The notes: a model not told the origin generated them from the letters alone. A stretch of 64,000 nt of DNA from an uncultured Candidatus Saccharibacteria bacterium (GCA_964507955.1 CAZDRR010000001.1:66650-130649); one strand, 5' to 3'; shown: positions 4,815 through 64,000, numbered from the stretch's first letter. Made by a program: numbers and translations.

Positions 4815-4817
4815 AAT

Positions 4818-11540: not shown

Positions 11541-11541
11541 T

Positions 11542-14094: not shown

Positions 14095-14171
14095 TGGTTG
14101 GACTAGCGGGGATCGAACCCGCATATTCTGATTCACAGTCAGAGATTTTGATCCATTTAAACTATAGTCCA
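14095..14171 (-). tRNA. tRNA-His (anticodon GTG), CCA encoded
   Basis: Acceptor TGGACTA/TAGTCCA; T-arm GCGGG-TTCGATC-CCCGC; anticodon stem TCTGA/TCAGA; loop CTGTGAA. Confidence 0.55.
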
Positions 14172-14177
14172 CATTGG

Positions 14178-14600
14178 TTAATATTGAACATATACAGCGG
14201 CCTTCTTAACTTCATAAGAATCGCCCATTCCAAGAGTGTTGATGGCGGCTTGCATTTTACCAGCATCCTTGATCGCAGGAAGATGCCCTTCCATATGAGA
14301 AATAAATTGTTGGTTATAATAGCGCATATCTTCGCGCAGCCATTTTAACTGATAATTCATTTCGGAATATACAGAAGAAATCATCGCGGATACATCGCAC
14401 ATTTTGCAACAGTCTTTACAGCAACAGTCGCTTTCTTCTTTGTCTCCTTCATTTGGAGCCATCATATCGGCCTTTGATTCATAGGAGATAATGGTTTCAT
14501 TATCTTTATTTTCCAAAGTTGCAACAAGCCCAAAATTAGCGGCGTCTTTGATTGCGGCTTCGGCAATTTCTGAATTTAGAATTTTAAATGATTGTTTCAT
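14178..14600 (-). CDS. hypothetical Cys-rich protein
   Basis: This is the ORF starting MKQSFKILNSEIAE and it contains a CCCKDCCKMC cluster. The longer reading to 14654 would overlap a tRNA, so the internal start is preferred. Confidence 0.3.
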   Translation of the reverse strand: MKQSFKILNSEIAEAAIKDAANFGLVATLENKDNETIISYESKADMMAPNEGDKEESDCCCKDCCKMCDVSAMISSVYSEMNYQLKWLREDMRYYNQQFISHMEGHLPAIKDAGKMQAAINTLGMGDSYEVKKAAVYVQY

Positions 14601-14628
14601 AGTAGAGCTTACACGTAAAAAGGGAAAT

Positions 14629-14702
14629 TGGTAGCCCCACGGTGGATCGAACACCGAACTACAGATTCAAAATCTGTTGTTTTTCCATTTAAACTACAGG
14701 GC
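14629..14702 (-). tRNA. tRNA, probably Gln (anticodon TTG)
   Basis: T-arm CGGTG-TTCGATC-CACCG; anticodon stem ACAGA/TCTGT with loop TTTTGAA. The acceptor stem needs G-U pairs. Confidence 0.4.
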
Positions 14703-14708
14703 AGTTTT

Positions 14709-14792
14709 TGGTGCGGGCAGGGGGATTTGAACCCCCGTGTGGTATTCCTGCTTGGAAGACAGGCGCAATCGACCAGACTATGCGATACCCGC
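14709..14792 (-). tRNA. tRNA (possibly Gly-TCC; long variable region)
   Basis: Acceptor GCGGGTA/TGCCCGC; T-arm GGGGG-TTCAAAT-CCCCC; CCA is encoded. Confidence 0.45.
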
Positions 14793-14986
14793 GTAACTTA
14801 TTCTAAATATTTTTCACTCTTCGTCAAGAATATTTTTCACAACATCCTTCTTTTTCAATCCACAACCATATCGAATACGGTTGAGAATTTTTCCAGAGCA
14901 ATTCGTCATACAAACAGATTCGTCTTTCAAGATACGACGAATTTGGCGATTTGTCCGATTGTGTTCTGATTTTTTAGACATAAGAT

Positions 14987-15502
14987 TTAAATAGAAAAGT
15001 ATTGACGAACTTGATCTAAAGAAATAAAAATTGAATTGTATTTGGGATAAATCACATCAACGCAACAATTTAAATATCTTTGATCGACTTTCTTCCAAGG
15101 TCCCCAACCTTTGTGGATAATATGGTTATGGGTATGTCCATGAACATTGTTTTTCCCTCGTAATTCGTCTGGATGAATCGGGCAATGAGTTAACCACATA
15201 CCCTTGTATTTCAACATTCCATGAACTTCTTCGAAAACCTCCATTTGATCTTTCGTGGAAACAAAATCACAATGATTGCCTTTAATAAGGATTTTACGTC
15301 CCTTTAAGTTGCCAAGGATATCCAATCCCTCTTTGGAAAAGGCCGCGTCTCCTAAACAATAAACAAGATCATTTTTACTAATTCTTCTATTCCAATCTTC
15401 TTGAATTAAGATTGTGTTTTCTTCGCTATTACCTACAAAATGTCTAAATTTACCGATATTTCGATGATCAAGATGTAAATCGCTGCAAATATATACGCTC
15501 AT
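14987..15502 (-). CDS. calcineurin-like metallophosphoesterase (Ser/Thr phosphatase family)
   Basis: The motifs D-x-H (SDLHLDH), GDxxD (LGDAAF), GNH (KGNHC) and HGH are present. Confidence 0.65.
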   Translation of the reverse strand: MSVYICSDLHLDHRNIGKFRHFVGNSEENTILIQEDWNRRISKNDLVYCLGDAAFSKEGLDILGNLKGRKILIKGNHCDFVSTKDQMEVFEEVHGMLKYKGMWLTHCPIHPDELRGKNNVHGHTHNHIIHKGWGPWKKVDQRYLNCCVDVIYPKYNSIFISLDQVRQYFSI

Positions 15503-16125
15503 AATTTTTTATAAAATTTTCCTTTTTTGTCAAGACACTGGTAAAATAGGTCCATCAGATCCATATCTATACCCCGAAAGGATTCCAGAGTCAAGAGTTT
15601 TGTAGGCATTTCTTTCAGTAAATAAGGATGGTAGATTGTTGTGCTGTCATACCATTTATTTTGGAGGAAGGTGAACTGATAATAGAACAAATATAGATTT
15701 GCGTTTTTCGCGTAAATTTCATTATCAAACAAGCCCCATCTTTTGGAATATTTTAAAGCCCGAGATTCACAATCTCTTTCCAAAGCAATAACATCCATTA
15801 CAGAATCAAAGTTTGAGCAATTTAATTTTTTTTGCTCCAAAAGATCCCAATAGATAAAATCGTCTTTCCATAACAAAGAATTTTCAACTGCTTGATTCAT
15901 ATGGGAGAATTCATGAACGAAAACTTGTTGAAATAAAGGATTTTTAGTTGCCACAACAATTTCTTCTCCGTCGCACCATCCAGAGCATTTTCCGCTCGGA
16001 TGACTGATATTACGGGTATTAACTAAAATAATTTTTTTATTATTTTTAGCAATATAGTTTTCGCTCCATTGAAAAAAATTTTGAAAATTTAAAGATTGTT
16101 GGGATAGGAAGCTATTTTTGTTCAC
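15499..16125 (-). CDS. hypothetical protein with HExxH motif (possible metallopeptidase)
   Basis: A 208 aa ORF containing VHEFSHM. Confidence 0.3.
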   Translation of the reverse strand: MNKNSFLSQQSLNFQNFFQWSENYIAKNNKKIILVNTRNISHPSGKCSGWCDGEEIVVATKNPLFQQVFVHEFSHMNQAVENSLLWKDDFIYWDLLEQKKLNCSNFDSVMDVIALERDCESRALKYSKRWGLFDNEIYAKNANLYLFYYQFTFLQNKWYDSTTIYHPYLLKEMPTKLLTLESFRGIDMDLMDLFYQCLDKKGKFYKKL

Positions 16126-16158
16126 ATTATATAATAATTGAAATTAGCAATTTTTCAA

Positions 16159-16234
16159 TGGTGGGAATTAAGGGAATCGAACCCTTATCTTGTCTTTAGG
16201 AAAGACTTATTCTAATCCATTATACTAAATTCCC
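16159..16234 (-). tRNA. tRNA (isotype not resolved)
   Basis: T-arm AAGGG-TTCGATT-CCCTT; acceptor GGGAATT/AATTCCC; CCA is followed by ATTTT. Confidence 0.45.
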
Positions 16235-16441
16235 ATACAAGTCAAGAAAAATGGAGGAAAACTAGGGTCCTGATCCCTATGAGTATTGTTCATACCCACC
16301 ACTTACTTTCCAAGTAAGGGCCAACACTTGCTGGCTTAGTTTTCCATTGGAGGATGATTGAACAGTCCAAGTCCATGCCTTTCAGCACACATCGTTTTCG
16401 AAACGAGTTTCCCAGCTTGGGAATTAATCATCCATTTAAAA

Positions 16442-16532
16442 TTGGAGGATCGTAATAGAATCGAACTATTATCCTAGTATTACTAGCATAGCCGAGGGTT
16501 CAAATCTCGTTTGCGGCCATTGCGCTACGATC
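16442..16532 (-). tRNA. type II tRNA (possibly Ser-TGA)
   Basis: Acceptor GGATCGT/ACGATCC; T-arm AATAG-TTCGATT-CTATT; long variable-arm hairpin CTAGTAATACTAG. Confidence 0.35.
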
Positions 16533-16538
16533 CATTTA

Positions 16539-16730
16539 TTATTCAAAAATTACTTCGTCATCATCGCCATCATTAGCAATAACGGAGGCTTTGCTTTTCT
16601 TTTCATCCCATTTGCTATAACAAACTGCTGCGCGTTGTTTATTATCGGGGAACTCTTTTGACAAATCCGCCATACAAGAACTCATAAATTCCTTTTTGGA
16701 CTGCTTTTTGGAAGGTGATTTAATAGGCAT
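16539..16730 (-). CDS. small hypothetical protein
   Basis: A 63 aa ORF lying between tRNAs. Confidence 0.2.
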   Translation of the reverse strand: MPIKSPSKKQSKKEFMSSCMADLSKEFPDNKQRAAVCYSKWDEKKSKASVIANDGDDDEVIFE

Positions 16731-16747
16731 ATTACTGTTTACACTTT

Positions 16748-16824
16748 AATAAAGAAATGGTCCTCGCAGTAGGATTCAAACCCACACAATCGCCCTTATA
16801 AAGAACGCGCTTTGTTCATCTCAG
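16748..16824 (-). tRNA. tRNA (anticodon loop TTTATAA; possibly Ile-TAT)
   Basis: Acceptor CCTCGTA/TGCGAGG; T-arm GTGGG-TTTGAAT-CCTAC; CCA encoded. Confidence 0.45.
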
Positions 16825-16829
16825 CCATA

Positions 16830-16914
16830 CGAGGAAAATTGGTAACTAAGGTGGGATTTGAACCCACAGAGGATAAATGATTTTAAGTCATTCGGTTGTC
16901 GCCATTTCCCTTAT
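16830..16914 (-). tRNA. type II tRNA, probably Leu (anticodon TAA)
   Basis: Acceptor GACTAAG/CTTAGTT; anticodon stem AATGA/TCATT with loop CTTAAAA; T-arm GTGGG-TTCAAAT-CCCAC; total length 85 nt. Confidence 0.45.
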
Positions 16915-16929
16915 CCACTTAGTCATTTT

Positions 16930-17148
16930 TTAAAATTCTATTTTCTTTGGTTTTCTAGTAATAGAGAGTTCAATTTCGAATTCATCTTGAAATTCATTTT
17001 CTCTTAAAAGAGGCCCATTGCGATGAACTTCTCCGTCGATAATAATCGTAATGTGATGACCAGACTTTGATTTACACGAAAAAGAATATTGCTCTGTTGG
17101 AGACAGTTGCATTCTATTATGAGTGCCAGAAATTAAGATCGCTTGCAT
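16930..17148 (-). CDS. small hypothetical protein
   Basis: A 72 aa ORF preceded on the - strand by TTGACT-N16-TAGATT. Confidence 0.3.
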   Translation of the reverse strand: MQAILISGTHNRMQLSPTEQYSFSCKSKSGHHITIIIDGEVHRNGPLLRENEFQDEFEIELSITRKPKKIEF

Positions 17149-17190
17149 TAGGCAAATCTAAGAGTTTTTCTGTAAAAGTCAAGAGAAAAA

Positions 17191-17269
17191 TGGTAGCCCG
17201 TGAGGAGGTCGAATCCCCAACCACAACTTTTTGAGAGTTGCCGCACTGCCACATTTAGCGTAACGGGCC
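17191..17269 (-). tRNA. tRNA (isotype not resolved)
   Basis: Acceptor GGCCCGT/ACGGGCT; anticodon stem CAACT/AGTTG; CCA encoded. Confidence 0.45.
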
Positions 17270-17278
17270 ATTGAAAAT

Positions 17279-17363
17279 TGGTGGGAAAGGTGGGATTCGA
17301 ACCCACAGAGGGTAAAAGATTCTAAATCTTTCGCTTGTCGCCAATTTCACTTATCCACTTTCC
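17279..17363 (-). tRNA. type II tRNA (possibly Leu-TAG)
   Basis: Acceptor GGGAAAG/CTTTCCC; T-arm GTGGG-TTCGAAT-CCCAC; anticodon stem AAAGA/TCTTT; length 85 nt. Confidence 0.45.
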
Positions 17364-17369
17364 CAAAAA

Positions 17370-17449
17370 TGGTGACTCTGATAGGAATCGAACCTACACT
17401 ATTAACTCTCTCAAAGTTATGCCTCTGCCTTGTGTTGGGCTACAGAGTC
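17370..17449 (-). tRNA. tRNA (isotype not resolved)
   Basis: Perfect acceptor GACTCTG/CAGAGTC; T-arm GTAGG-TTCGATT-CCTAT; anticodon stem TAACT/AGTTA. Confidence 0.45.
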
Positions 17450-18025
17450 TTTTTTTAAATTACAATCTGCGCAAAATATTTTCTTGCCATTCCAGTAAGG
17501 GCATACGGTTGGGTCCGTGCAATCAATAGCATATCCCATAATACCCTTTGACATTCCATCATTACTTTGGATTCGTATTTTGCGGAATCTCATTTTCTTG
17601 CCTTGAATAGTTTCATCGAAAGTTTCCGCTTCTCCAGACGCCCAAACAGATAAATCATGTTTGCGAAATAAATCTGCCGTTGCCTTGTCCCAACCGACTT
17701 CAAGATCAGTTTTACCTATATAGTCTTTTCTGTCAAGTCCATATGTTGAACAATAAGCTTCATTAACTTCCATCATTCGGAATTCAACTTCTCCGTCTGA
17801 TCTTACTTGGGCAACTTTGATCCACGCAGGTCTGTCAAAGGAATTTATAACACTAAAAAGCATTCCATTCAATCTTTGCACAGATATATTTGTATGTTGT
17901 TTTATTTCATTGATTTTATTGTCAAATCGCCCTTTAAGCTTAAAATAGGTAAAAAGTAATGCGGACAACTGCCCCCCGATTGAAACGACCAACTCCGTGA
18001 TTTGTCCACTATCCATAATGGACAT
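17417..18025 (-). CDS. membrane-anchored protein with PAS-like domain
   Basis: An N-terminal hydrophobic helix (ITELVVSIGGQLSALLFTYF) is followed by a PAS-like segment (MMEVNEAYCSTYGLDRKDYIGKTDLEV). The 3' end overlaps the predicted tRNA at 17370..17449. Confidence 0.3.
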   Translation of the reverse strand: MSIMDSGQITELVVSIGGQLSALLFTYFKLKGRFDNKINEIKQHTNISVQRLNGMLFSVINSFDRPAWIKVAQVRSDGEVEFRMMEVNEAYCSTYGLDRKDYIGKTDLEVGWDKATADLFRKHDLSVWASGEAETFDETIQGKKMRFRKIRIQSNDGMSKGIMGYAIDCTDPTVCPYWNGKKIFCADCNLKKDSVAQHKAEA

Positions 18026-18147
18026 TATTACACAAAAAAACTAACGGAAATCATTAGGTTTTTTAAAAAAATGGAGGCTATATAGAGAATCCAACTCTAA
18101 TTTCATCATTACGAAAGATGTATAATCGCATTATATCATATAGCCAT

Positions 18148-18222
18148 TGGTAGGGGATCAGGGAGTCGAACCCTGTGGTGGCAGTTTGTAGGACTGCTGC
18201 CCAACCGTAGAGCATATCCCCC
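18148..18222 (-). tRNA. tRNA (possibly Val-TAC)
   Basis: T-arm CAGGG-TTCGACT-CCCTG; acceptor GGGGGAT/ATCCCCT; anticodon stem GCAGT/ACTGC. Confidence 0.4.
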
Positions 18223-18230
18223 ATTAAAAT

Positions 18231-18305
18231 TGGACGCGCCGACACGAATCGAACGTGCGTAATGCTCTTTTGCAGAGAGTTGAGTAGCCATTCCCCCACA
18301 GCGCG
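18231..18305 (-). tRNA. tRNA (possibly Cys-GCA)
   Basis: Acceptor CGCGCTG/CGGCGCG; T-arm CACG-TTCGATT-CGTG. Confidence 0.4.
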
Positions 18306-18313
18306 ATAAAAAT

Positions 18314-18392
18314 TGGCCCGCGTAGGTCGGAATCGAACCGACTATTTAACTCGTTTTGGAGGCGAGTTGCAACCGCCACTTGCTGCTACGGG
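18314..18392 (-). tRNA. tRNA, probably Trp (CCA) with an unusual anticodon loop
   Basis: D-arm GCAA-GTGGCGG-TTGC; T-arm GTCGG-TTCGATT-CCGAC. The anticodon stem ACTCG/CGAGT encloses a 9-nt loop, CCTCCAAAA. Confidence 0.35.
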
Positions 18393-18640
18393 ATGAAAAA
18401 TTTAAAAGAGTGGAGTCCGTAACTTTTTCTTGGCAGAATGAGGTTTAGACAGTGACTCCGCATGGGCTACTTTGGTCGTTTCGGTTCCACCCGAATTAAG
18501 ATTTCTCAACTTGTTACTGGACACCAACGCGCCTTTCCATGACTGGCTTACAAACTTCGCCGCTTTCGCTCTCTTTTAAAATTGGTGGAGAATATGCAAA
18601 ACACTTTATTAAAATTTTGTTTTGCAGTGTAAAGATTATT

Positions 18641-19138
18641 ATGAACCTTAAAGAACAAATTCGACAATATAAATTAGAAAATCCCGATAAAGGTTATGCC
18701 TCTATTGCAAAACATTTTAATTTAAAATCTCATAATTCTGTTAGATATCATTTAGACGATGCTGTTAAAATTAATATATTAAAATCGTCTAAACAATCTA
18801 GGCAGCGTAATGTATTAAAATTAAAAATCAAACAAAGTATTAAAGAGTCTAAAAAACAGGGAGTTATATCCGATTCATTTAATGATTTATTTAAATATTT
18901 TTCTACCCAAGAACCTATTTGTAATTTATCTGGTGTAAAATTTAATATCAATGATTCTTCTGCTTATGAATTAGATCATAAAATTCCTTATTCTCGCGGA
19001 GGAACCAATCAAAAAGAAAATTTGCAATTTACTATTAAATCTGTTAATCGCGCAAAACATTCTTTATTAGAAGAAGAATTTGTGTCTTTATGTAACGCAG
19101 TATCTAAATTTATGGGAAATGGACACAACGAGAATTGA
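18641..19138 (+). CDS. HNH homing endonuclease (start taken at the internal Met; the ORF extends to 18539)
   Basis: HNH motif YELDHKIPYSRGGTNQKENLQFTIKSVNRAKH. This is a + strand gene embedded in the - strand tRNA array. Confidence 0.55.
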   Translation: MNLKEQIRQYKLENPDKGYASIAKHFNLKSHNSVRYHLDDAVKINILKSSKQSRQRNVLKLKIKQSIKESKKQGVISDSFNDLFKYFSTQEPICNLSGVKFNINDSSAYELDHKIPYSRGGTNQKENLQFTIKSVNRAKHSLLEEEFVSLCNAVSKFMGNGHNEN

Positions 19139-19535
19139 ACTCGCCACACCGACATTGCAAGTGTCAGTCGCCCCCAAGGAACATGTGCGCCCATATATTG
19201 CCGTGAGAACCCTAAGCCTGATCTCTCGCATCATAATCAGCAATCAGGCGTGTTACTGATCTCTTGTGCTTTACGGCGAAATTGGCGGTCCATAGGGGGA
19301 ACGATCCCCTTCCTCAAGATTGACAATCTAGTGATGCTTCCTTTACACTAATGGACCTTAAAATTTATTAAAATTGGTAATTGGTTATGCCCTTTGACCG
19401 AGGGGGTGTGTTCTTATCTTACAGAACGACGTTGGATATGCTACCTATTCGTTCGGGCGGCTCCTTAAATTTACTTTGTCGATCCGATGCATATTAGATC
19501 GACTTTTCAACGATAAGACCAACTCTAACCAAAAC

Positions 19536-19610
19536 TGGTAGGCAGTGGGGGAATTGAACCCGCCGTCTCTTGATTCGTATTCAAGTATTCTTCCGTTATA
19601 CTAACCGCCC
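19536..19610 (-). tRNA. tRNA-Arg (anticodon ACG)
   Basis: D-stem GTAT/ATAC; anticodon stem CTTGA/TCAAG with loop ATACGAA; CCA encoded. Confidence 0.5.
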
Positions 19611-19623
19611 ATTGAAAATTGTT

Positions 19624-19698
19624 TGGAGGCACGATGGAGAGTCGAACTCCAGTATCACCCATACCAAGGGTGTATAATAACCGTTATATGATCGAGCC
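19624..19698 (-). tRNA. tRNA-Thr (anticodon GGT)
   Basis: Anticodon stem CACCC/GGGTG with loop TTGGTAT; T-arm TGGAG-TTCGACT-CTCCA. Confidence 0.45.
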
Positions 19699-19701
19699 AT
19701 T

Positions 19702-19773
19702 TGGTCGGATACTTGAGAATCGAACTCAACTGATCTTGCTCCCAAAGCAAGCGCATCGCCAGTCTGCCTGTAT
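19702..19773 (-). tRNA. tRNA-Pro (anticodon TGG)
   Basis: Acceptor CGGATAC/GTATCCG; anticodon stem CTTGC/GCAAG with loop TTTGGGA. Confidence 0.45.
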
Positions 19774-19779
19774 CCGTTA

Positions 19780-19858
19780 AATTGGTGCGAGTAGTGAGAT
19801 TCGAACTCACGATCATTCTTCGTTGGCAACGAAGTGCAATGGACCACTATGCGACACT
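19780..19858 (-). tRNA. tRNA-Gly (anticodon GCC)
   Basis: Acceptor GCGAGTG/TACTCGC; anticodon stem CTTCG/CGAAG with loop TTGCCAA; T-arm GTGAG-TTCGAAT-CTCAC; CCA encoded. Confidence 0.55.
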
Positions 19859-20243
19859 CGCAAAAAACTCTCCGAATTACGCATTGTAAAGAGGCGCGGA
19901 GAGTATGAAAATTGTTTCTATGCCTTGAGATTACAGGCTAGGGCGATCAACCATTCACAAGATTATTAGAAGACATTCCAAGCCCCCACTTCCTTGCTTA
20001 TCCACTACCTCTCGATAGTTGTCAATCAATGACGCTGTTTTATATACCGTTAGCTATTACGGTTTACCGCTTGCCATACTCAACCTTCGTTAATTCTTCG
20101 GGGTATGCCTACCGCGAATAAATTCCCTTAGATTAAACGCCTTGTGCCTTGCGGGCCAAGGTTCGCACAGAATTATCTTTCGATTTCTGTATTAGTCACC
20201 TTTCTGGCTTTCGGGGTCGCAACTTTTGCTTTTTATATATTAT

Positions 20244-20343
20244 GACATTCCCTTGAATGGAACCGCTTTATCCAGTTAAGCTACCCGCTCCGACAAAGCA
20301 TAAGCTGTCTGCTCTGTTGGCGAGCGGGACAGGAATCGAACCT
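20244..20343 (-). ncRNA. rearranged tRNA-like locus: 3' half (T-arm, acceptor, CCA) lies upstream of a matching 5' half (acceptor, D-arm, anticodon arm with loop ATTCAAG, anticodon TCA)
   Basis: On the - strand the order is GCAGG-TTCGATT-CCTGT, then CCCGCTC-G-CCA, then a 24-nt spacer, then GAGCGGG-TA-GCTT-AACTGGATA-AAGC-G-GTTCC-ATTCAAG-GGAAT. The two acceptor strands are perfectly complementary, but the halves are in permuted order. Confidence 0.35.
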
Positions 20344-22993
20344 GCATCTGATATATGGAAACCTACATTCATGTGTGCGACCTCGCTGCTTCCAAAATCT
20401 CTCGAAATTAGAAATACAACACACGAATTAACCTCTCTCTCGCGAGTTCAGTATCATCCCCAAGACTTCCCTTGATATAATCACAGGTTGCCTCGAAAAT
20501 ATGCCGTTCGCCTTTGCATCTCTGCTCTGACTTATGGCTACCCTTTGGGATTCATGCTTTCGAACCAAATTAAGTTTCCCTTTCAGGACCGATTACACCG
20601 TTGGCCTCACCGTTTTACTCTCAATGACCCGTAGGCTTCAACAACATAAGTTTTGATTTGCTCATATTGCCGATTCCCTTGGCTTGCTTGGTGGACTGCT
20701 TTTATACAGTGGGCGGCGTAGGACACCTTATCCCTTTCCCCGAATCACTTCGGGATTATCCAGTAATGCCCCCAAGCGGGCAGAATTTTTAAAATGTTAA
20801 AGAACTTTTTGTATCGCACCTTCGAAGCTTTGCATCGTCGGCTGATGTTTAGGACTATATCTGGTTTTCAGATTTTGTCAACAGGTTTTTTGAAAATTTT
20901 ACGGTTGTCTTGGCTAAGACAACCAAATAAGGTTGTTTAAAGATGGAGAAGATTGGATTCAAACCAATTCGGCATTTACTTTCCAGCCTGCCGTATTGCT
21001 GGAGTCAGTTACAGACGTATGCACGATTATAGCCCACGGGAGCAATCAACAGATCTAACCCATAAAACTAGACCAGTCTTCCGAGCCGCGCTGGTTTCGG
21101 GTATGTCTCACCACACTGCTTCTCCTAAAATTTGGTCCTCCCGACTCGCATCGAACGAGTAATTTGCAATTATCAGTCGCAGGTTATGGCCGTTTTAACT
21201 ACAGGAGGTAAGCGCCAAACTGGTTCGCATATTAAGAGGCGTTTTGGCGACTGTCAAGAAAAAGTTGGTTGGACCAGAGAATTGCGACATCTCAGCCTTC
21301 CGCTTATCGGGCGGATGCTCTTCCTTTGAGCTATGGTCCAATGAAAATTGTGCTACCAGAGTGGGAATCGAACCCACACAACTCCCGAGTTTTATCCTGA
21401 GTCGAACAGGATTCCCTTGGTATTGGCCAAGGGGTAGCACCAGCTACTTCTCGCAGCATTAAAATGGAGGCCCATTGGTGACATGCACACCACTATCTAG
21501 GTTACAAATCTAGCGCATCGCTATCTATGCTTATAGGCCATGAAATTTGGCTGTGAGACAGGGACTTTCACCACTCCGATCATTCTTGCAAGAGAAACTG
21601 TTGATCGCGCTATAATTCGCTTCCCACAATTGAAAATGGAGGAAGGCTGAGAACTTGAATCCCATGAGAGTATTAGTCCCACAATCTCGTTAGCACCGAG
21701 TTCTAGTCGCCTGACCAGTTAACCTTCCATAAAATGGTCGCTTGTCTCCGAATCGAACGGAATTATTTCGGGCTTCAACCGAACGCACTGTCACCAGACC
21801 TGCCCACAAGCGTAAAAATTGGCTCCTCACCTTCGAATCGAACGAAGCTCGTTGGCTATTACTAGCTTACAGCTTAACAGGCTGCCCGCACTCCTTGTGC
21901 GTTGTGAGGATTTATATATGAAAATTTTTGGTGCTGTCTCTCTCGCCGTCTCTCTCGCGGGTCAAAGGCTTACGACCTTTCCCACGTATCGTTTTAAGTT
22001 AACGCTAGTTATTTAAAAATGATAAGTCGTCCTCCCCCTTATCTTGCATTAAGTTTTTCCCCACAATTTTACGTTTTCTTATGTTTTACCGTTATGGTTC
22101 TTACGGGCAATGCTTCATTCAACTCTAATATGCTTCCATATTTTCAACCCGTAGAGGATTTAAGTTCTATGTTTCAAATTGGTGCAAGACACGGGAGTTG
22201 AACCCGCACGATATTCGGGTAAGAGCCGAATGCCCGTAGCCGAATGCCCGTCCACTGTGGCTTATCTTGCATAAAAATGGTCAGGGTGGAGGGTAATGCT
22301 CCCACTTCTACTGGTTAAAAGCCAGTGGCTTCACTATTAAAGCTTCACCCCGTTACAAAACAACAAGTGGATTGTAAAAGCCCACATTACTCCCTCCTAC
22401 GGAAGCGTCCTAACACTTAAACGATTGTTGTTAAAAGATTAATTAGCAGTAGAAAGCATTACTACGCCATTTCAGTTTATTGGATTTTATTTGTCAGGGA
22501 ATTTGTGACCTGATTTTATAATCAATATTCTTGATGGATGGATCACAATCTCCATTCTCCAACGTATCTTTCCTGTAGCAATTCGCGGACTGCTAAAATG
22601 GTGCGTGCCGTGGGATTCGCACCCACTCAGACTTATTTGTATGCCGCAAGGTTACAGCTTGCTTTGCTCTCTCAGGCTAGGACACGCATAAAACAAACAG
22701 GGGTGTCCTGCCACTAGACGACGATCAACATCATTGAATCGACAGGAATCGAACCTGTGTCTCCCCTTAGACTTATAAATTGGTCGCTCCCCTTAGATCG
22801 GACTCATGAAATCCAACGCCTGCGCAGCGAGGAGCGTTTGAAAAGATTAGTCAAACTGTGGAACGACCACAAACCTTCGTTAGAGGCGAGAACTAACGGA
22901 TTCGAACCGACAGCAGCCTGCCTTTTTCTCTGTTTGACTAAAAGTGGAGGCGGCACGGTGATGTAACCGTGAATCATCCGCCATTGAAAAATT

Positions 22994-23075
22994 GGTAGGA
23001 CGAGAGGGATTCGAACCCTCACTAATTCCTCGTTATGAGCGAGGTCCAGCACCATTACTGGTTGTCGGCCAATTG
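22994..23075 (-). tRNA. tRNA-like (Met/Ile2-type anticodon arm CCTCG-CTCATAA-CGAGG); acceptor pairing imperfect
   Basis: A T-arm (GAGGG-TTCGAAT-CCCTC), a D-arm (CCAG/CTGG) and a CAT anticodon arm are all present. The acceptor strands do not pair cleanly. Confidence 0.3.
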
Positions 23076-23222
23076 AAAATTTTCTGTTGAGAGTGTGAGT
23101 TCCACTCTGTTATGGCTATTTAGTCACCGTCACGATTCATCATCGTCGCTTGCATCGTTCTCAGCTACAACAGAAAATAAAAATTGGTTGCAGAAGTTAG
23201 ATTCGAACTAACGATTTTCACC

Positions 23223-23660
23223 TTATGAGGATGACGAGATGGCCGCTTCTCTATTCTGCTTTTTTAAATATTTAATTGCGGACTCAAGGCTAAAAATATT
23301 ATCAAAAAAATGCCCTAATCCTAAATTGCAATGGTTACAAATCCATCCTCTAAATTTATTAGAAGAATGACAGTGGTCTAATTGGAGATTAGAATGTTTT
23401 CCGCAGATTTCGCAATTTAAGGGTTTTTCAGTTATTTGGTTTTTATTTTGTAAAAAAGAATAACCGTGTAAAAAAGTCTTCTCAGGATTTTTCTTTTTCC
23501 ATTTTTCAGAATATTGAATTTGTTTTTTGCTATTTTTGGGATACCAAACTTCTTTGACATATTTATTATGGCATTCCTTGCAATAAGATCGGGGTTTTCC
23601 TCTATTAAGCGAAAAATTATCTATAGATTTTAATTGGCCACATTTTGAACATTCTTTCAT
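23223..23660 (-). CDS. HNH endonuclease of the endonuclease-VII-like type with N-terminal zinc ribbon
   Basis: N-terminal zinc-ribbon pattern CSKCGQLKSIDNF...CKEC. EndoVII-like motif LDHCHSSNKFRGWICNHCNLGLG. Confidence 0.6.
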   Translation of the reverse strand: MKECSKCGQLKSIDNFSLNRGKPRSYCKECHNKYVKEVWYPKNSKKQIQYSEKWKKKNPEKTFLHGYSFLQNKNQITEKPLNCEICGKHSNLQLDHCHSSNKFRGWICNHCNLGLGHFFDNIFSLESAIKYLKKQNREAAISSSS

Positions 23661-23878
23661 AAGAAGAATTACACAATACTCTCATAAATACTCTCATAAT
23701 TTTAGAATAATCTAAAACAAACGACCAACGTGCTACCCTTACACTATATTCCCGATTAAGAGAGTCCAGATTCGAACTGGTCTTTTGGTTAAGTCATGCG
23801 CCAATATGCTTCCATTACACCTAATGCCCGTAGTGGACAATGCCGAATCGAACGGCCCCTTTGACTGAATTTGTAAAA

Positions 23879-23955
23879 TTGGCACTCCCAGCGGGAATCA
23901 AACCCTGCGTTTCATGATTGAAAGTCATGTGTCCTGCTCGACTAGACGATGGGAG
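23879..23955 (-). tRNA. tRNA-Glu (anticodon TTC)
   Basis: Acceptor GCTCCCA/TGGGAGT; anticodon stem CATGA/TCATG with loop CTTTCAA; T-arm CAGGG-TTTGATT-CCCGC (4 of 5 positions pair). Confidence 0.5.
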
Positions 23956-24332
23956 CATTGAAATTTAGGCATCTCGCCAGCGGTCATTACGAGTGATTAG
24001 CTCGTCTGGAGCCGCCAGTGACACCACGGTTTTTGTTTTTAGCGAAATCACTCGCGAATACAAGAACCTTGAAAATTTATCGGATGAACCCTAAAACCGA
24101 ACATTACTGCTCAAGGCTTATTGGTCCTACTAGGGTCCGAAAACTCCTAGAAGTTTCTACAAACGCTCTTGTTTCCCCCAACTTGTTCTCTCAAGATTGG
24201 CTTCACAGTCATCACTGTCCCCTTTCGGTCTTAGCGGGTTCTGGCCCTCGCTGCCGTCGATGTTTCAAACTCTACAGATTTTTCCGAATTCGTCAACAGA
24301 TTTTTTCGGAAATTTCTCTTTTCTACAGAAAA

Positions 24333-59465: not shown

Positions 59466-59545
59466 GGGGGTGTATCTCAACGGTCTTCTAAGCCGTGATA
59501 GAGTAATGGAATCAAATGCAGGTTCGAATCCTGTCTCCCCCACCA
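59466..59545 (+). tRNA. atypical tRNA-like gene (anticodon arm ACGGT-CTTCTAA-GCCGT, anticodon TCT; reduced D region and long extra arm)
   Basis: Acceptor GGGGGTG/CTCCCCC, then A, then CCA. T-arm GCAGG-TTCGAAT-CCTGT. Only 7 nt separate the acceptor from the anticodon stem, and 21 nt separate the anticodon stem from the T-stem. Confidence 0.35.
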
Positions 59546-59550
59546 AAAAT

Positions 59551-59635
59551 GGCTTCTTGGCGGAATTGGCAGACGCTACTGGTTTAAGCCCAGTTGCCCT
59601 CGGGTGTGAGAGTTCGAATCTCTCAGGAGCCACCA
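59551..59635 (+). tRNA. tRNA-Leu (anticodon TAA), type II
   Basis: Acceptor GGCTTCT/AGGAGCC; anticodon stem ACTGG/CCAGT with loop TTTAAGC; variable-arm hairpin; T-arm GAGAG-TTCGAAT-CTCTC; CCA encoded. Confidence 0.6.
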
Positions 59636-60069
59636 TTTTTTAAACTACTTTTACGCCTTCTCCATGTAGGAGTAAGACCATGGCAATTACAACAAAGAAG
59701 TTTTAAATTGTCTAAATTATTATTTGTCCTATCACCATCAATGTGTTCTATTTCTAATGGAATAGGTTCATTTTGCCAGTCTCCTAATCCACAATTTTCA
59801 CAATAATGCCCTCTTAATTTAATAAGATGTGGTTTCAAGTTATTTCCTCTTGTATATTGACTCCAATCTTTTAATTGTTGATTTTTACTCCAGCCACATC
59901 CTGCCCAATGGTCACAAGATAAATTTAGCCTTTGCAAATTTTTTTTCATATTAGCGAAATTTCCACCAGCTTGTTTTAAACCGAGTTCGCGTAATAAAGC
60001 CCCCATAGAAGAAACTTCTTTTGATTTGTCGATAATATCTTGATCTGTATAGTTTCTATATTGTCCCAT
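59623..60069 (-). CDS. HNH endonuclease
   Basis: CENCGLGDWQNEPIPLEIEHIDGDRTNNNLDNLKLLCCNCH. The 3' end overlaps the tRNA-Leu by about 13 nt. Confidence 0.55.
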   Translation of the reverse strand: MGQYRNYTDQDIIDKSKEVSSMGALLRELGLKQAGGNFANMKKNLQRLNLSCDHWAGCGWSKNQQLKDWSQYTRGNNLKPHLIKLRGHYCENCGLGDWQNEPIPLEIEHIDGDRTNNNLDNLKLLCCNCHGLTPTWRRRKSSLKNGGS

Positions 60070-60779: not shown

Positions 60780-60954
60780 CGAACTTCGTCAAAGTTCTTC
60801 CAAATAAAGCGAAATAAACTGTTAGCGACTATTTTACCCTCGTAACTCGTTGATTATCAATGGGTTATGGGGGTGGTTTTTTGTATTTGTGGGGTTATAT
60901 CCTCTATGCTTAATCGCATAGGGGATTTTTTGTGGGTATGTAAGTTGTTGATTA

Positions 60955-61015
60955 TGAGGGGGTTACGAGCGAGCGACCCCTTCGGGGTCGCGTTTCCGCA
61001 ACCCCTTGGTTTTCA
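60955..61015. repeat. intergenic repeat copy 1 (UUCG-tetraloop hairpin GACCCC-TTCG-GGGGTC plus conserved tail)
   Basis: GCGACCCCTTCGGGGTCGCGTTTCCGCAACCCCTTGG...AATGACTTAC. It lies just 3' of the - strand gene 61029..61262. Confidence 0.5.
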
Positions 61016-61028
61016 ATGACTTACAGCG

Positions 61029-61262
61029 TTACTTGAATGAATCGACGGGAACCATCGCTTCCTCAAATGGTCCGTTTTCCAGATAGTGATTTGATTCACA
61101 AATGTTTATAGCATCATCTAGTTCATATTCACCAGCCTCGGAACGGTTAGAAGTGTAACCCGCCCATGCCGCTTTCCACCATGCATTATGTTCAGTTGAC
61201 CAGATATAGAATTTCATTTTTTTAGATTGTAAAGATATATCAAAACTCCGATTAGAATACAA
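61029..61262 (-). CDS. hypothetical protein
   Basis: A 77 aa ORF containing KFYIWSTEHNAWWKAAWAGYT. Confidence 0.3.
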   Translation of the reverse strand: MYSNRSFDISLQSKKMKFYIWSTEHNAWWKAAWAGYTSNRSEAGEYELDDAINICESNHYLENGPFEEAMVPVDSFK

Positions 61263-61281
61263 GCGGCAACAATTATTTCCA

Positions 61282-61983
61282 TTATTGCACCCCCTCGACT
61301 ACAAAGCCCGAATGGTCCTTGCGGGCTTTACCCTTTTGAACCAATCCCACAACAACACCCTTGTCATCCAGAAACCGCAAGTCACTTTCATCGCCATTCA
61401 CAACGGGAAAGCCTTGCCATGTTTCAGGCAACTTGCCACGGAAAACAACCGCAACATTTCCTTGACTTTTAAGAAAGGGGATACAAAGGTCTCCATTTTC
61501 TTCACTACGGGAAAAGGTCAAATGATAATTGGAAGGGAATTTGCCATCCAAAAAATCACTCATCCGATCAGGGTTTTTGGTATAATCGTAAAACTGGACG
61601 TTAGGGAAACGATTGACAATTGAAATCCCATCATGCCCGATATTTTCCCAAGGCAAGTCGCTGGTAAGATTCAAACGAAAACAAGGGGTGAGATTGGCTT
61701 TTTCAGCTTTTCGGATAGCGGCCAAAATTTCCTTTTCCAACTCTTGCGCAAATGCGTTTTTGTTTTCAAAAAACTTACGTGTTTTGGCGATACGGGCATT
61801 CTGGACTCGCGAGTAAGCACCGCGCCCAGCCGTATTCAAACAAGCTGCCGCGCATCCCTGACTGGCAAATTGGCAAACGTTATAGCCCGACAAATCAAAC
61901 GGAGCAAGGTGTAAACCTGCGGTGAGGAAACCCATTTTTTCCCCTTTTTGAATTTTGGTATTGGAGTAGGTGAGCAAAGACAT
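61282..61983 (-). CDS. conserved phage hypothetical protein (GC-rich; N-terminal KGxKxGFLTAGLHLAP...SG.NVC...GC...CLNTAGRG motif)
   Basis: A 233 aa ORF at about 48% GC. The opposite-strand ORFs across this span were rejected as antisense artefacts of the high GC content. Confidence 0.4.
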   Translation of the reverse strand: MSLLTYSNTKIQKGEKMGFLTAGLHLAPFDLSGYNVCQFASQGCAAACLNTAGRGAYSRVQNARIAKTRKFFENKNAFAQELEKEILAAIRKAEKANLTPCFRLNLTSDLPWENIGHDGISIVNRFPNVQFYDYTKNPDRMSDFLDGKFPSNYHLTFSRSEENGDLCIPFLKSQGNVAVVFRGKLPETWQGFPVVNGDESDLRFLDDKGVVVGLVQKGKARKDHSGFVVEGVQ

Positions 61984-62013
61984 GCGGGTAGAATAGCTTG
62001 GATTTAAAATTTG

Positions 62014-62352
62014 TCAAACACTTTGTCTATTTATTTGCGGAGTTGCATCCTCCACTTTAATCCAGAAAGAATCGTTAATTTTTAAATGTTGTTTTAAAAA
62101 TTCATTTTCCTGACTGCAAATTTCAAATTTTTCTTTTAAATGTGGGAAAAAGACTGAATGCTTCGCGTTAAAGATTCCTTTAATCCATCCTTTCTTTTTA
62201 GGATTTCTGGTAGAAAAGGAAACATTGATTTGCAGAGGAAAATAATCTATGGGTTTTATTCCAAGAGCGAGGCCGACAAACTTAAAGCAAAGTCCGAAAG
62301 GTCCGTTTAAATAAAAACTATACGCTTTTTTCAATGTCTTAGTGGTTTTCAT
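62014..62352 (-). CDS. hypothetical protein
   Basis: A 112 aa ORF. Confidence 0.3.
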   Translation of the reverse strand: MKTTKTLKKAYSFYLNGPFGLCFKFVGLALGIKPIDYFPLQINVSFSTRNPKKKGWIKGIFNAKHSVFFPHLKEKFEICSQENEFLKQHLKINDSFWIKVEDATPQINRQSV

Positions 62353-62424
62353 GCGGAGAATGTATCACTTATTTTAATTTGTGGCAAGAGAAAAATTTGA
62401 GCTGTAAGTCTCTTATTATCAATG

Positions 62425-62475
62425 ACTTACGAAAACCAGACCCCGAAGGGGTCGCGTAAACGCAACCCATTCATT
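62425..62475. repeat. intergenic repeat copy 2 (hairpin GACCCC-GAAG-GGGGTC; loop inverted relative to copies 1 and 3)
   Basis: AATGACTTACGAAAACCAGACCCCGAAGGGGTCGCGTAAACGCAACCC. Confidence 0.5.
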
Positions 62476-62497
62476 ATCAACGACTTACAACAGAAAA

Positions 62498-62521
62498 CCC
62501 GCTCCCCTTGCGGGAAGCGGG
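62498..62521 (-). terminator. hairpin terminator for the 62541..63389 gene
   Basis: CCCGCT-N-AGCGGG, followed on the - strand by TTTTCTG. Confidence 0.4.
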
Positions 62522-62540
62522 CTGTCCTCAGTTAGAACGG

Positions 62541-63389
62541 TTATTCTCCCGTTCCATCCACAACGATTGGCTCAAACTCCTCATCATCAGTTTCAGCCGT
62601 TAGATTTGCGCCTTCGGGTGCGGCGTTATCCTCGCAACCTGCCGTGGCAATCTCTTGCACTTCCAACACGGGGCGATGACCAGACATGCGATCAAAGATA
62701 CTTTGGATAGTCATCGTGCGGAAGGGAAGCTTGTTGAGGTCTCCACCTTTGAGGTTTTCCGTCAAAGCGTTGTAAAGAGTCCACAAGGTTCCACCCTTGA
62801 ATTCTTCATGACGCGGATTGCGGAATTCCGTCACGGCGTTGTAAATCTCGCGAGCGGGGAATGCCTTGACATCCACAAGCTTGACAATCAGGTTTTCCGC
62901 CTGTTCGTTTGTCAGGTTGACATTTTTGTAAGCTTCGATACGCTTACCCATGTCATTCCAATGGGAAACCACGCGCCCGATAGCTTCGGCAATGATGCGC
63001 GGCAGATCGTCCATGATGTTGACGGTATGGCGGCGGGCAAGCTTCACATCAGAAGCAAAGCACAGATTTTCGCACACAGTCATTTGATTGCCAATACACA
63101 GCGCGGCAGCAAAGGACTTGTCATGAGCATTGCGCAAGCCAAGCACAACACGGCGATCCGTTCCGTCGATATCAGGACCGCTCAGGGCAAATCCACCAAA
63201 GTAACGTTGACCATCGCGAGCGAGGGCGTGTTCTTCGGCAGTAATGGTCAAACCTGCGGCAGCGATAGCGGCAGTGACGAGTTCAACAAGTTTCAGGTGA
63301 GGAATCGGCATGAAGCTTTCCGTAGCGTCGGGAGTGGGGACGTTGGCAAGTTGTTCACGGGATACCTTGTTTTTGGCGATAATTAGCAT
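62541..63389 (-). CDS. hypothetical protein, GC-rich (possibly a DUF932-like phage/plasmid protein)
   Basis: A 282 aa ORF at about 50% GC containing VVLGLRNAHDKSFAAALCIGNQMTVCENL. The fully overlapping + strand ORF 62655..63386 was rejected as antisense. Confidence 0.4.
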   Translation of the reverse strand: MLIIAKNKVSREQLANVPTPDATESFMPIPHLKLVELVTAAIAAAGLTITAEEHALARDGQRYFGGFALSGPDIDGTDRRVVLGLRNAHDKSFAAALCIGNQMTVCENLCFASDVKLARRHTVNIMDDLPRIIAEAIGRVVSHWNDMGKRIEAYKNVNLTNEQAENLIVKLVDVKAFPAREIYNAVTEFRNPRHEEFKGGTLWTLYNALTENLKGGDLNKLPFRTMTIQSIFDRMSGHRPVLEVQEIATAGCEDNAAPEGANLTAETDDEEFEPIVVDGTGE

Positions 63390-63499
63390 TTTGTTTAGGG
63401 GTTATGTTGCCATCAGCGGCAACGAAAAGAACTTATCATATTACGCGGATTTGTCCACACTTTTTTTATTGTTTTTCGTCGGTTGTAAGTTGTTGATTT

Positions 63500-63550
63500 T
63501 AAATGACTTATGAAAACCAGACCCCTTCGGGGTCGCGATTACGTAACCCC
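63500..63550. repeat. intergenic repeat copy 3 (UUCG hairpin element)
   Basis: AAATGACTTATGAAAACCAGACCCCTTCGGGGTCGCGATTACGTAACCCCTTG. The upstream GTAAGTTGTTGATT is also shared with copy 1. Confidence 0.5.
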
Positions 63551-63565
63551 TTGAGAATGAATAAG

Positions 63566-64000
63566 TTATAACTTCCAAAAGCTAAAATTCCTAGTCGCAA
63601 CAATATCATTCAAAAGAACCGCAGTGCAAAGATCTTTCCTTCCCTCGCGGGCGTAGAGTTTATACAACATTTTGTCTTTTGAGTCAACTCTTTTTCGATT
63701 AAGTTTCGAATCGACTAATTGAATTAAAGTAGTGCGAGGGACAAGATAAAACCCATTGGACCATTCAAAAGCAATGATGTTCGCCTTGCCATAAAGCCAC
63801 CCGTCTTTGCCAGTAATCCCCAACAATTCCAAAAGCACAAAATCAAAGGTCTTTTCTCCTTTTTCATCAAGAATAGGGAAAGCTTTTTTACTCTTGACCT
63901 CAACAGTTAGATTACAGCCAGAGTCTTTTGTGATGCGGAAATCCCAATGTTCAAAACGTTCTTGTTGCGGAGTGGCGGGGGTAATGTTATATCCATTAAG
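63566..64000 (-). CDS. hypothetical protein (partial; 5' end lies beyond the window end)
   Basis: The - strand reading frame of ORF 63566..63838 stays open to position 64000 (...LNGYNITPATPQQERFEHWDF...). Confidence 0.35.
   Translation of the reverse strand, partial: LNGYNITPATPQQERFEHWDFRITKDSGCNLTVEVKSKKAFPILDEKGEKTFDFVLLELLGITGKDGWLYGKANIIAFEWSNGFYLVPRTTLIQLVDSKLNRKRVDSKDKMLYKLYAREGRKDLCTAVLLNDIVATRNFSFWKL

Follow-up and report, generated by a model that had tools for sequence, protein, structure and literature searches.

Enterobacterial chromosomes carry repetitive extragenic palindromic (REP) sequences and bacterial interspersed mosaic elements (BIMEs), including the RIB/RIP type which binds IHF. 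Cluster A mycobacteriophages such as L5 possess stoperators, which are single, asymmetric 13-bp sites bound by the phage repressor gp71. A further system is represented by the promoter-early stem-loop (PeSL) cassettes of T4-type phages (Arbiol et al. 2010, PMC2839356; Comeau et al. 2014, PMC4122927). A PeSL consists of a stem-loop terminator, an AT-rich tract and a sigma70-like promoter, and PeSLs bound insertions and deletions in hyperplastic regions (PMC4122927). Here, we describe a repeated intergenic element with paired palindromes in a stretch of 64,000 nucleotides deposited under an uncultured Candidatus Saccharibacteria bacterium (GCA_964507955.1 CAZDRR010000001.1:66650-130649). This whole stretch is called the window; positions without a locus name refer to it and those preceded by an L number to the respective locus. 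The elements lie in an array of small co-directional genes in its last 3.2 kb, and this array belongs to a large, uncultured, rIIA/rIIB-encoding phage. On sequence grounds, the elements are a widespread, previously undescribed family of intergenic modules which separate small gene cassettes in uncultured large phages.

Structure of the Element in the Window

An element of approximately 89 nt was found in three copies on the minus strand (60939–61027, 62403–62491 and 63484–63572) with pairwise identities of 70–74% over 89 nt. The original prediction, made from the window sequence, had noticed a conserved element at these places and described it as 40–50 nt long with a UUCG tetraloop hairpin (GACCCC-N4-GGGGTC). 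The places were confirmed, the anatomy was not. The 6 + 4 + 6 pattern is absent from the window; the real hairpin is GACCCC-NNN-GGGGTC with a 6-bp stem and a 3-nt loop (central 15-mer GACCCC-TTC-GGGGTC). It is flanked by two 27-bp imperfect palindromes which had been overlooked and which start 58 nt apart. The family consensus of the palindrome is nTAAsTCGTTGA-N3-TCAACGAsTTAn, and the consensus duplex of the 27-mer is GTAACTCGTTGATTATCAACGAGTTAC. A search pattern for this 26/27-nt motif occurred at seven sites in the window versus 0.17 expected, all within 60842–63569. In gene direction the two palindromes of a pair are referred to as P1 and P2.

In copy 1 the palindromes occupy 60940–60966 and 60998–61024 and the hairpin GACCCC-TTC-GGGGTC occupies 60975–60989. 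This copy is the most symmetric one and the last module of the array, and it has no U-tract on the gene (minus) strand. Copy 2 comprises palindromes at 62404–62430 and 62462–62488 and a hairpin at 62439–62453. Its loop is flipped relative to copies 1 and 3 with the stem kept, as had been recognized correctly before: the 15-mer is the exact reverse complement (GACCCCGAAGGGGTC versus GACCCCTTCGGGGTC). The minus-strand sequence of copy 2 is GACCCCUUCGGGGUC, then UGGUUUUC, and it is scored as terminator-like. Copy 3 (palindromes 63485–63511 and 63543–63569, hairpin 63520–63534) is likewise terminator-like on the minus strand, with the tail UGGUUUUC. Thus, the GC stem-loop with a U-tract on the transcribed strand that characterizes an intrinsic terminator was present in copies 2 and 3 and absent from copy 1.

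The three copies are located 3' of a 172-amino acid gene, of the DUF932 gene and of a 77-amino acid open reading frame (ORF), respectively. The claim that every minus-strand gene ends in a copy therefore did not hold. Five minus-strand ORFs share three elements, with the 112-amino acid ORF, the Gp88-family gene and the 77-amino acid ORF forming one unit between copies 2 and 1. Consequently, the elements bound transcription units and not single genes. A lone 27-bp palindrome with core 60842–60868 lies on the plus strand within a hairpin at 60834–60876, which has a 20-bp stem followed by TTTTTTG. From its sequence this hairpin is terminator-like with respect to the convergent genes on the plus strand, and the array ends with it. 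A second terminator-like hairpin of these genes was found at 60899–60926 on the plus strand (11-bp stem and TTTTTG).

A public contig of 6.9 kb (L081) encodes the identical DUF932 protein and shares 3021 nt with the window without a single mismatch. On this contig the array extends at least 3.9 kb past the window end with four additional elements, which results in at least seven copies in this phage. Both ends of L081 fall inside elements, as would be expected if the repeat breaks assemblies, and the repeated elements account for the breaks of short-read assemblies of these phages in the array region. On the gene strand, five of the seven central hairpins score as terminators. The order in the intergenic regions, read in gene direction, is sometimes a strong terminator, then P1, the hairpin with a U-rich tail, P2, an A-rich tract and a -35/-10 pair. 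The predicted promoters possess a TTGACA-like -35 region, a spacer of 16 or 17 nt and a TAnnnT -10 region. For at least five genes the predicted -10 region ends exactly 6 nt before the ATG, and no Shine-Dalgarno sequence is present (in L081 the promoters at 2214–2242, 2532–2560, 3477–3504 and 5531–5559). Leaderless mRNAs are therefore predicted, and the array genes appear to be expressed in this form.

The phage encodes homologues of rIIA, rIIB, a clamp-loader protein and endonuclease VII, for which the best cultured match showed ~28% identity, and it carries more than 22 tRNA genes. A megablast search of the region against cultured phages gave no match, and among cultured phages tblastn of DUF932 yielded only Salinibacter phages with 28% identity.

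Distribution of the Element in Related Viral Loci

The family was reached via the DUF932 protein, for which more than 80 relatives with 50–73% identity were found on IMG/VR contigs of up to 147 kb. Eighty of these loci were retrieved, and the palindrome counts given below refer to the window and these loci. The search of related genomes and metagenomes suggested along with the original prediction was productive: the palindrome was present at 933 sites, 554 of them unique, in the window and in 71 of the 80 loci. Exact palindrome matches were also present in more than 120 other viral stretches of IMG/VR. The exact 30-nt element of the window had no match in IMG/VR, and this variant is private to its lineage.

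Paired palindromes were spaced, start to start, by 50 nt (277 pairs), 58 nt (59), 48 nt (57) or 51 nt (26), and the spacer between them had a GC content of 65–89%. For the 58-nt type, to which the window belongs, the mean folding energy of the spacer was -13.9 kcal/mol versus -7.7 kcal/mol for shuffled sequences. In this type the stem GACCCC/GGGGTC is invariant, even across lineages in which DUF932 is only 63–71% identical to that of the window. Its loops form two pairs of reverse complements, TTC/GAA and TAC/GTA; the loop is therefore free to invert.

The arrays of the relatives extend over ~10 kb and contain 10–13 modules between co-directional small genes. A typical module is composed of a stop codon, a strong terminator, ~20 nt, P1, the GC spacer, P2, 60–130 nt, an A-rich tract and a promoter, i.e. 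the strong terminator is usually situated upstream of P1. Within the palindrome, positions 3, 4, 10, 18 and 25 are conserved in at least 99% and positions 2, 24 and 26 in 96–97% of the sites, and positions 5, 8 and 9 are free to vary. Of all parts of the module the palindromes are best conserved, and they had not been described before. Relatives lacking GTAAsTCGTTGA have, in the corresponding intergenic places, inverted repeats of other sequence which are specific to their lineage and surround a GC-rich core. Such alternative palindromes were found within 6000–14000 of L001 (AATCTAACAG...CTGTTAGATT), L011 (TTTACGC...GCGTAAA) and L073 (GGCCAGGGCTACCCCTGGC and TTACGC-N5-GCGTAA). Among the lineages the motif types GTAAsTCGTTGA, ATCTAACAG and TTTACGC could be told apart.

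Several additional features of the relatives were recorded. The heptamer TGTCAAG, the complement of CTTGACA, follows P2 in 35–72% of the modules versus 8% in the background, usually with the A-rich tract next. Its distance downstream of P2 is 29–32 nt in the 50-nt type and 39 nt in the 48-nt type (for example L051 5800–5830 and L016 9830–9850). An antisense unit TTGACA-N17-TGTTATA is formed by it in the 48-nt lineage. Antisense promoters in general were rejected, since only in that lineage is TTGACA (TGTCAA on the gene strand) accompanied by a -10 region at the proper spacing. A reading of TGTCAAG as the L5 stoperator GGTGGMTGTCAAG was rejected as well, since only the portion complementary to the -35 hexamer is common. 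In L006 about a dozen TTGACA...TAnnnT matches end 9–10 nt before ORF starts. The same locus contains two Gp88-family paralogues (4157–4852 and 11455–12153) with 68% nucleotide identity in separate cassettes of one array. A sigma-70-family protein (Sigma70_r2, 4.5e-8) is encoded at L024 2744–3427 on the minus strand and has homologues in 31 loci; it is not found in the window. In many relatives its gene is part of a block which flanks the upstream end of the arrays.

Conservation of the Array and Turnover of Cassettes

The GC content of the array exceeded that of the flanks in 60 of 60 loci with sufficient flanking sequence (mean 44.5% versus 38.3%). An ORF of the Gp88 family was present within ~10 kb of DUF932 in 65 of the 72 motif-bearing loci and in five of nine others. 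The window, L006, L015, L043 and L051 share the gene order DUF932, (small ORF), Gp88, array end and convergent genes, and in L006 and the window tRNAs follow beyond the convergent genes. The conserved synteny and the GC shift in relatives therefore indicate a conserved accessory array and not a recently acquired moron. The original prediction had assumed horizontal acquisition of a moron; array, elements, raised GC content and synteny are all conserved in relatives, which is the kind of result it had itself named as speaking against this view.

Gain and loss of cassettes were compared in two pairs of relatives of the window's lineage, L006/L010 and L043/L051. L006 and L010 are 99% identical over 7.5 kb, and a two-gene cassette of L006 is missing from L010. 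This cassette lies between the L006 elements 4966–5050 and 5795–5879, and L010 retains a single element at 6285. Similarly, L043 contains an extra 113-amino acid cassette (10971–11418) between two elements, both of which align to one element of L051. Thus, cassette insertions and deletions between relatives are bounded by elements. The repeated unit comprises 130–270 nt at 70–89% identity and is therefore long enough for homologous recombination, and we infer that recombination between the modules is of this kind.

Covariation Analysis of the Palindromes

The variable positions of the palindrome arms were analyzed for compensatory changes. At positions 5/23, 265 Watson-Crick pairs were observed versus 283 expected, together with 137 G.G and 130 C.C combinations. 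Positions 9/19 were occupied by T-A (329), T-G (124), C-A (94) and C-G (7). For the long hairpin that P1 and P2 could form, position 5 of P1 and position 23 of P2 gave 92 pairs versus 140 expected. The variable arm positions thus lack the covariation expected of an RNA or single-stranded DNA hairpin, and for this reason hairpin pairing is not what is conserved in the palindrome. When the whole element was folded as RNA, seven of the eight copies tested reached z values of -3 to -6.7, and the value for copy 3 of the window was -0.8. No Rfam family matched the element.

Occurrence of the Palindrome in Bacterial Chromosomes

The 25-nt core of the palindrome was searched in bacterial assemblies with one genome per species. 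This search revealed 82 exact matches versus ~0.5 expected, as estimated for uniform base composition. Most matches were single sites, and the chromosomal contigs carrying them measured up to 390 kb. They were found in Fibrobacter (dozens of metagenome-assembled genomes (MAGs), with several sites per genome), Akkermansia and other Verrucomicrobiales, Saprospiraceae and other Bacteroidota, Lentisphaerae, Victivallales and Gemmatimonadota. Of 57 classified host sites, 26 were located between divergent, 27 between tandem and only four between convergent genes. Such an excess of divergent and tandem positions would be expected of promoter-associated sites, and not of terminators or REP-like elements.

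Upstream of a Fibrobacter gene for a 1302-amino acid protein the palindrome forms a conserved block in 10 MAGs with diverging flanks. The distance from the palindrome to a conserved TATAAT shifts by ~34 nt at this site. A second orthologous Fibrobacter site was found upstream of a conserved 136-amino acid gene. At several sites on MAG contigs of Bacteroidota, Victivallales and Lentisphaerae the palindrome starts 3–13 nt after tRNA genes for Lys, Gln, Phe, Ser and Arg (L104 2768–2878; L137 1203–1311; L149 6661–6769; L151 1083–1195; L159 2095–2204). A T-run follows it in L104 and L137. In the phage locus L036 (9781–9880) tRNA-Met is followed directly by P1.

In Akkermansia (L127 3067–3120, L134 and L150) the palindrome is located upstream of argS, and a second, unrelated perfect palindrome ATGTTCCACATGGAACAT adjoins it immediately downstream. 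Three Akkermansia and related MAGs show this conserved double arrangement at argS.

Read from the centre outwards, the half-site of the palindrome is W-A-T-C-A-A/G, four bases and T-T-A. The IHF consensus is WATCAANNNNTTR (WATCAR-N4-TTR) (PMC9452768, PMC10380432). WATCAR-N4-TTR was found in register in 351 of the 554 unique sites, in 57 of them in both halves. The window contains 21 matches to the IHF consensus, six of which lie in the last 3.2 kb. A tblastn search with few reference proteins, and hence of low sensitivity, found no HU/IHF gene in the window and 2.2 Mb of related viral DNA. Literature searches for the motif sequence retrieved primers only, or nothing.

Proposed Function of the Modules and Alternative Explanations

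We see about an even chance that the modules are the intergenic punctuation of a co-directional accessory cassette array, with terminator, promoter, protein-bound palindromes and recombination as its components. The hairpin and its U-tract would end the upstream transcript, and the promoter would start the next one. The two 27-bp palindromes would serve as double-stranded sites for a dimeric, sequence-specific DNA-binding protein, most likely encoded by the host, which by binding would bend the DNA between cassettes or insulate it. As the modules recur every 0.4–1.5 kb, recombination between them could add or remove whole cassettes. In gene direction a module comprises an optional terminator, P1, a GC-rich core, P2, an A-rich tract and a sigma70-like promoter, often in leaderless placement. 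The core in the window's lineage is formed by a perfect 6–7-bp stem, a 3-nt loop and a U-tract. The palindrome recurs at conserved positions of bacterial chromosomes and is therefore probably bound by a protein rather than active as RNA. A tentative extension, which we regard as possible but doubtful, is that a sequence-specific DNA-binding protein of Fibrobacterota, Verrucomicrobiota and Bacteroidota, perhaps a homodimeric IHF/HU-like one, uses the palindrome as its operator. A whole clade of large environmental phages would then possess 14–35 paired copies per genome between early gene cassettes and would either recruit this protein as an insulating or architectural factor or, with a decoy array, titrate it from the host chromosome.

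A number of observations weigh against the punctuation model. Termination at the hairpins, protein binding and the identity of the binding protein are inferred from sequence. The window palindromes are degenerate, with 3–6 mismatches from the family consensus. Spacers of the 48-, 50- and 51-nt types fold no better than shuffled sequence, and only in the 58-nt lineage could the core thus serve as a terminator. A simple operator-promoter geometry is unsupported, since the family shows no constant distance between P2 and the promoter. Six of the seven copies of this phage allow pairing of CGCGACCCC with the inner half of P1, GGGGTTRCG (L081 1174–1203, 3321–3348, 4371–4398 and 5453–5479; window 60975–61005). 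The resulting 9-bp alternative stem competes with the terminator hairpin in an antiterminator-like arrangement, which the L006 group does not possess. With respect to the host sites, many Fibrobacter matches represent few orthologous loci, and their counts are not independent. The genes adjoining the host sites are heterogeneous, for which reason a regulon deduced from them was rejected. Several Bacteroidota copies directly after tRNA genes are extended hairpins, most of them followed by T-runs, and these copies look like terminators used at the RNA level. Canonical IHF is a proteobacterial protein, whereas the host sites are found mainly in Fibrobacter, Verrucomicrobiota and Bacteroidota, and these palindromes show conservation even at the four positions which the IHF consensus gives as N. 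For these two reasons the fit to the IHF consensus is a lead and not a proof.

The confinement of the sites to the array, with none in the other 60 kb of the window, would also agree with operators of a phage-encoded regulator which, like stoperators, would block or time transcription of the array. The different palindromes at the same place in L001, L011 and L073 resemble what co-evolution with a phage protein would give, the palindrome arms do not covary, and the arrays hold homologues of L5 gp82 and gp88. We nevertheless judge this explanation unlikely. Within ~10 kb no DNA-binding candidate accompanies the motif consistently; motif-specific families reached 33 of 72 loci at best, and the sole DNA-related domain there was the sigma70-region-2 protein. 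Moreover, a phage regulator leaves unexplained the conserved orthologous promoter-proximal host sites in several phyla. A further alternative is an action of the elements as RNA, either as 3' hairpins which terminate and stabilize the mRNA of each cassette or as RNase III-type processing sites, within a recent moron. Such an action would fit the location of the elements 3' of genes, the central hairpin and U-tract oriented with the genes, the strong folding of whole elements and the lineage-specific pairs and T-runs by which Bacteroidota palindromes after tRNA genes are extended. It is quite improbable in view of the missing covariation, both within the palindrome and between P1 and P2, with G.G and C.C mismatches at chance frequency. 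Furthermore, strong terminators usually lie upstream, so that transcripts would rarely reach the palindromes, divergent genes are enriched and convergent ones rare around the host sites, no Rfam family was matched, and a recent moron is contradicted by the synteny and the GC shift in 60 of 60 relatives. The RNA-stability elements of the original prediction are not supported on the same evidence, i.e. arms that do not covary, terminators upstream and the same palindrome in host promoter regions.

Two further explanations invoke recombination sites or mobile repeats. If the palindromes were site-specific recombination sites of the integron attC or res/hix type, elements that delimit cassettes and bound their insertions and deletions would be expected. 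Paired and triplet sites indeed recall accessory-site arrangements, and the 12-3-12 architecture of the palindrome is similar to that of serine-recombinase sites (12-1/2/4-12). We consider this very unlikely, since the cassettes, unlike those of integrons, have their own promoters, the repeated unit suffices for homologous recombination, and single conserved sites in host promoter regions do not fit. A tblastn search of low sensitivity with six reference proteins in 2.2 Mb of viral DNA detected no serine or tyrosine recombinase and no IntI. The same search detected no transposase, including the HUH type, and no IS200/IS605 TnpA or RAYT, which counts against selfish palindromic repeats (REP/BIME or miniature inverted-repeat transposable element-like) without function for the phage. 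Interspersed, extragenic elements that are paired like BIMEs would suit this explanation, as would the fact that the contig of this phage breaks off within an element on either side. The flipped loops (TTC/GAA, TAC/GTA) can be taken as showing that a DNA hairpin forms and inverts, and copies occur in several bacterial phyla, some of them beside tRNA genes, which are common targets of mobile elements. Selfish repeats are in our view hardly probable, because their positions are orthologous and stable across diverged phages and Fibrobacter species, and because position-specific conservation points to selection on the sequence and not to recent copying.

Additional candidates were tried and rejected. 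A hairpin promoter of the N4 type (5–7-bp stem, 3-nt loop) is not compatible with loops that flip between strands within one genome, with a U-tract oriented with the genes and with the lack of any hairpin in most lineages. The geometry of class II activators fails for the main 50-nt type. In one lineage TATAACA occurs exactly 15 nt after P2, and in short Fibrobacter variants TATAAT is located 26 nt from the palindrome centre. A reading of the half-site as a promoter of an extracytoplasmic function (ECF) sigma factor would require a spacing of 16–17 nt between AAC and CG, and 14 nt was found. CIRCE, FNR and LexA boxes were dismissed because their spacing does not fit.

The punctuation model has several implications. 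The 27-mer can be used as a DNA probe for fishing out the putative binding protein, and the palindrome offers a clue to the host of phages without cultured relatives. The signature of the element allows accessory arrays to be found in metagenomes, and host-takeover genes are expected in such arrays.

Genes and Predicted Promoters of the Array

All array genes of the window are located on the minus strand. The 172-amino acid gene runs off the window, which contains its 3' part (63566–64000). The next gene encodes a DUF932 protein of 282 amino acids (62541–63389; PF06067, 5e-13). Upstream of it, a putative weak promoter TGGACA-N16-TAAGTT at 63430–63457 was read by eye from the sequence and was not called by the promoter scan. 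It is accompanied by an A-rich upstream tract and a hairpin in the 5' untranslated region, and its position is homologous to that of the consensus promoter TTGACA-N16-TACACT upstream of DUF932 in L006. A second, conventional terminator after the 282-amino acid gene had been proposed and was indeed found as a predicted intrinsic terminator at 62496–62523 on the minus strand (12-bp stem, eight GC pairs). The following 112-amino acid ORF (62014–62352) had no family match. Its predicted sigma70-like promoter TTGCCA-N17-TACATT (62359–62387) ends 6 nt before the ATG and is situated 16 nt downstream of element copy 2. The gene for the 233-amino acid Gp88-family protein (61282–61983; PF17338, 2e-49; phrog_1617) is preceded by a predicted sigma70-like promoter TTGACA-N16-TATTCT (61990–62017), which also ends 6 nt before the ATG in a leaderless geometry. 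The 77-amino acid ORF (61029–61262) is the last gene of the array and gave a weak PHROG match only.

The original prediction had named a conserved phage protein, a possible DUF932-like protein and small ORFs as products of this block, which agrees with these assignments. The block 60800–64000 is indeed richer in GC than the rest of the window (43.7% versus 36.3%). The value of 33% assumed for the remainder was too low, and a tRNA block at 19–23 kb is equally GC-rich (local GC content 43–48%). For the two larger genes 48–50% GC had been given; the values are 45.2% for the Gp88-family gene and 51.7% for DUF932, and the 112- and 77-amino acid ORFs have 32% and 38%, respectively. The idea of an accessory module with its own signals stands with respect to accessory cassettes with predicted promoters and terminators of their own, and falls with respect to an RNA-stability role of the palindromes. 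A site of defence or anti-defence genes received no support: PADLOC matched none of 10 array proteins, and no relatives of array proteins were found among solved structures. NCBIfam named nothing in these proteins beyond a weak SprT match, and a literature search on DUF932 gave nothing informative.

Outside the array, the tRNA block at 14095–23956 on the minus strand contains 21 genes detected by ARAGORN and ~6 tRNA matches found by Rfam only. A match to the abiF RNA motif (Rfam RF03085) at 19867–19903 on the minus strand scored 39.5 bits versus a gathering score of 37; it directly adjoins tRNA-Gly within this block. Two further tRNAs lie on the plus strand at 59466–59635, just ahead of the array end, and an ORF for an HNH endonuclease (59623–60069) overlaps the 3' end of tRNA-Leu.

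Comparison with Known Systems

The central hairpin resembles an intrinsic terminator in that GACCCC-NNN-GGGGTC is followed by a U-rich tail on the gene strand in five of the seven copies of the phage. It differs from one by its stem, which is invariant across lineages, by its freely flipping loop, by the missing U-tract of copy 1 and by the lack of a hairpin in the spacer of most other lineages of the family. In contrast to integrons, whose promoterless cassettes each end in an attC site and lie next to an IntI integrase, the cassettes carry their own promoters, and IntI or another tyrosine recombinase was not detected by the low-sensitivity tblastn search. With REP sequences and BIMEs the elements share extragenic, imperfect, paired palindromes located after genes and a link to the IHF consensus. 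In contrast, the IHF-like consensus is found inside the palindromes here and in the linker of REP/BIME, covariation that would maintain a hairpin is absent, no RAYT was found, and the elements reside in a phage array.

Stoperators are comparable in that one sequence which binds a protein, here putatively, is present in many copies between the closely spaced genes of an early arm transcribed in one direction, and the arrays described here hold homologues of L5 gp82 and gp88. The sites of the present family differ as 27-bp palindromes which are paired around a GC-rich spacer and which recur in host chromosomes.

The likeness to PeSLs extends to the predicted combination of a terminator-like hairpin, an AT-rich tract and a sigma70-like promoter in one repeated intergenic unit. 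As in T4-type phages, the units lie between the small ORFs of a plastic region, with at least seven copies in this phage and 10–13 per array in relatives, and they bound the cassette insertions and deletions between L006 and L010 and between L043 and L051. PeSLs as described contain neither paired 27-bp palindromes nor a GC-rich spacer, whereas palindromes and spacer are the parts most conserved across lineages here and terminators and promoters vary. Further differences are the presence of the palindrome in bacterial chromosomes and the leaderless placement of many promoters, where PeSLs include a Shine-Dalgarno sequence. Recombination between PeSL units also yields mini-circles. The phage is at most a putative member of the T4 type; its rIIA, rIIB, clamp-loader and endonuclease VII homologues show ~28% identity, structural core genes were not identified, and the contigs of its relatives measure 100–147 kb. 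The concept of mobile regulatory cassettes is thereby extended from cultured T4-type phages to a large uncultured clade. A new component is added to it, namely a strongly conserved pair of palindromes which resembles a protein-binding site and also occurs in bacterial chromosomes. The best-supported description of the module is that of a PeSL-like punctuation with a link to conserved chromosomal sites.

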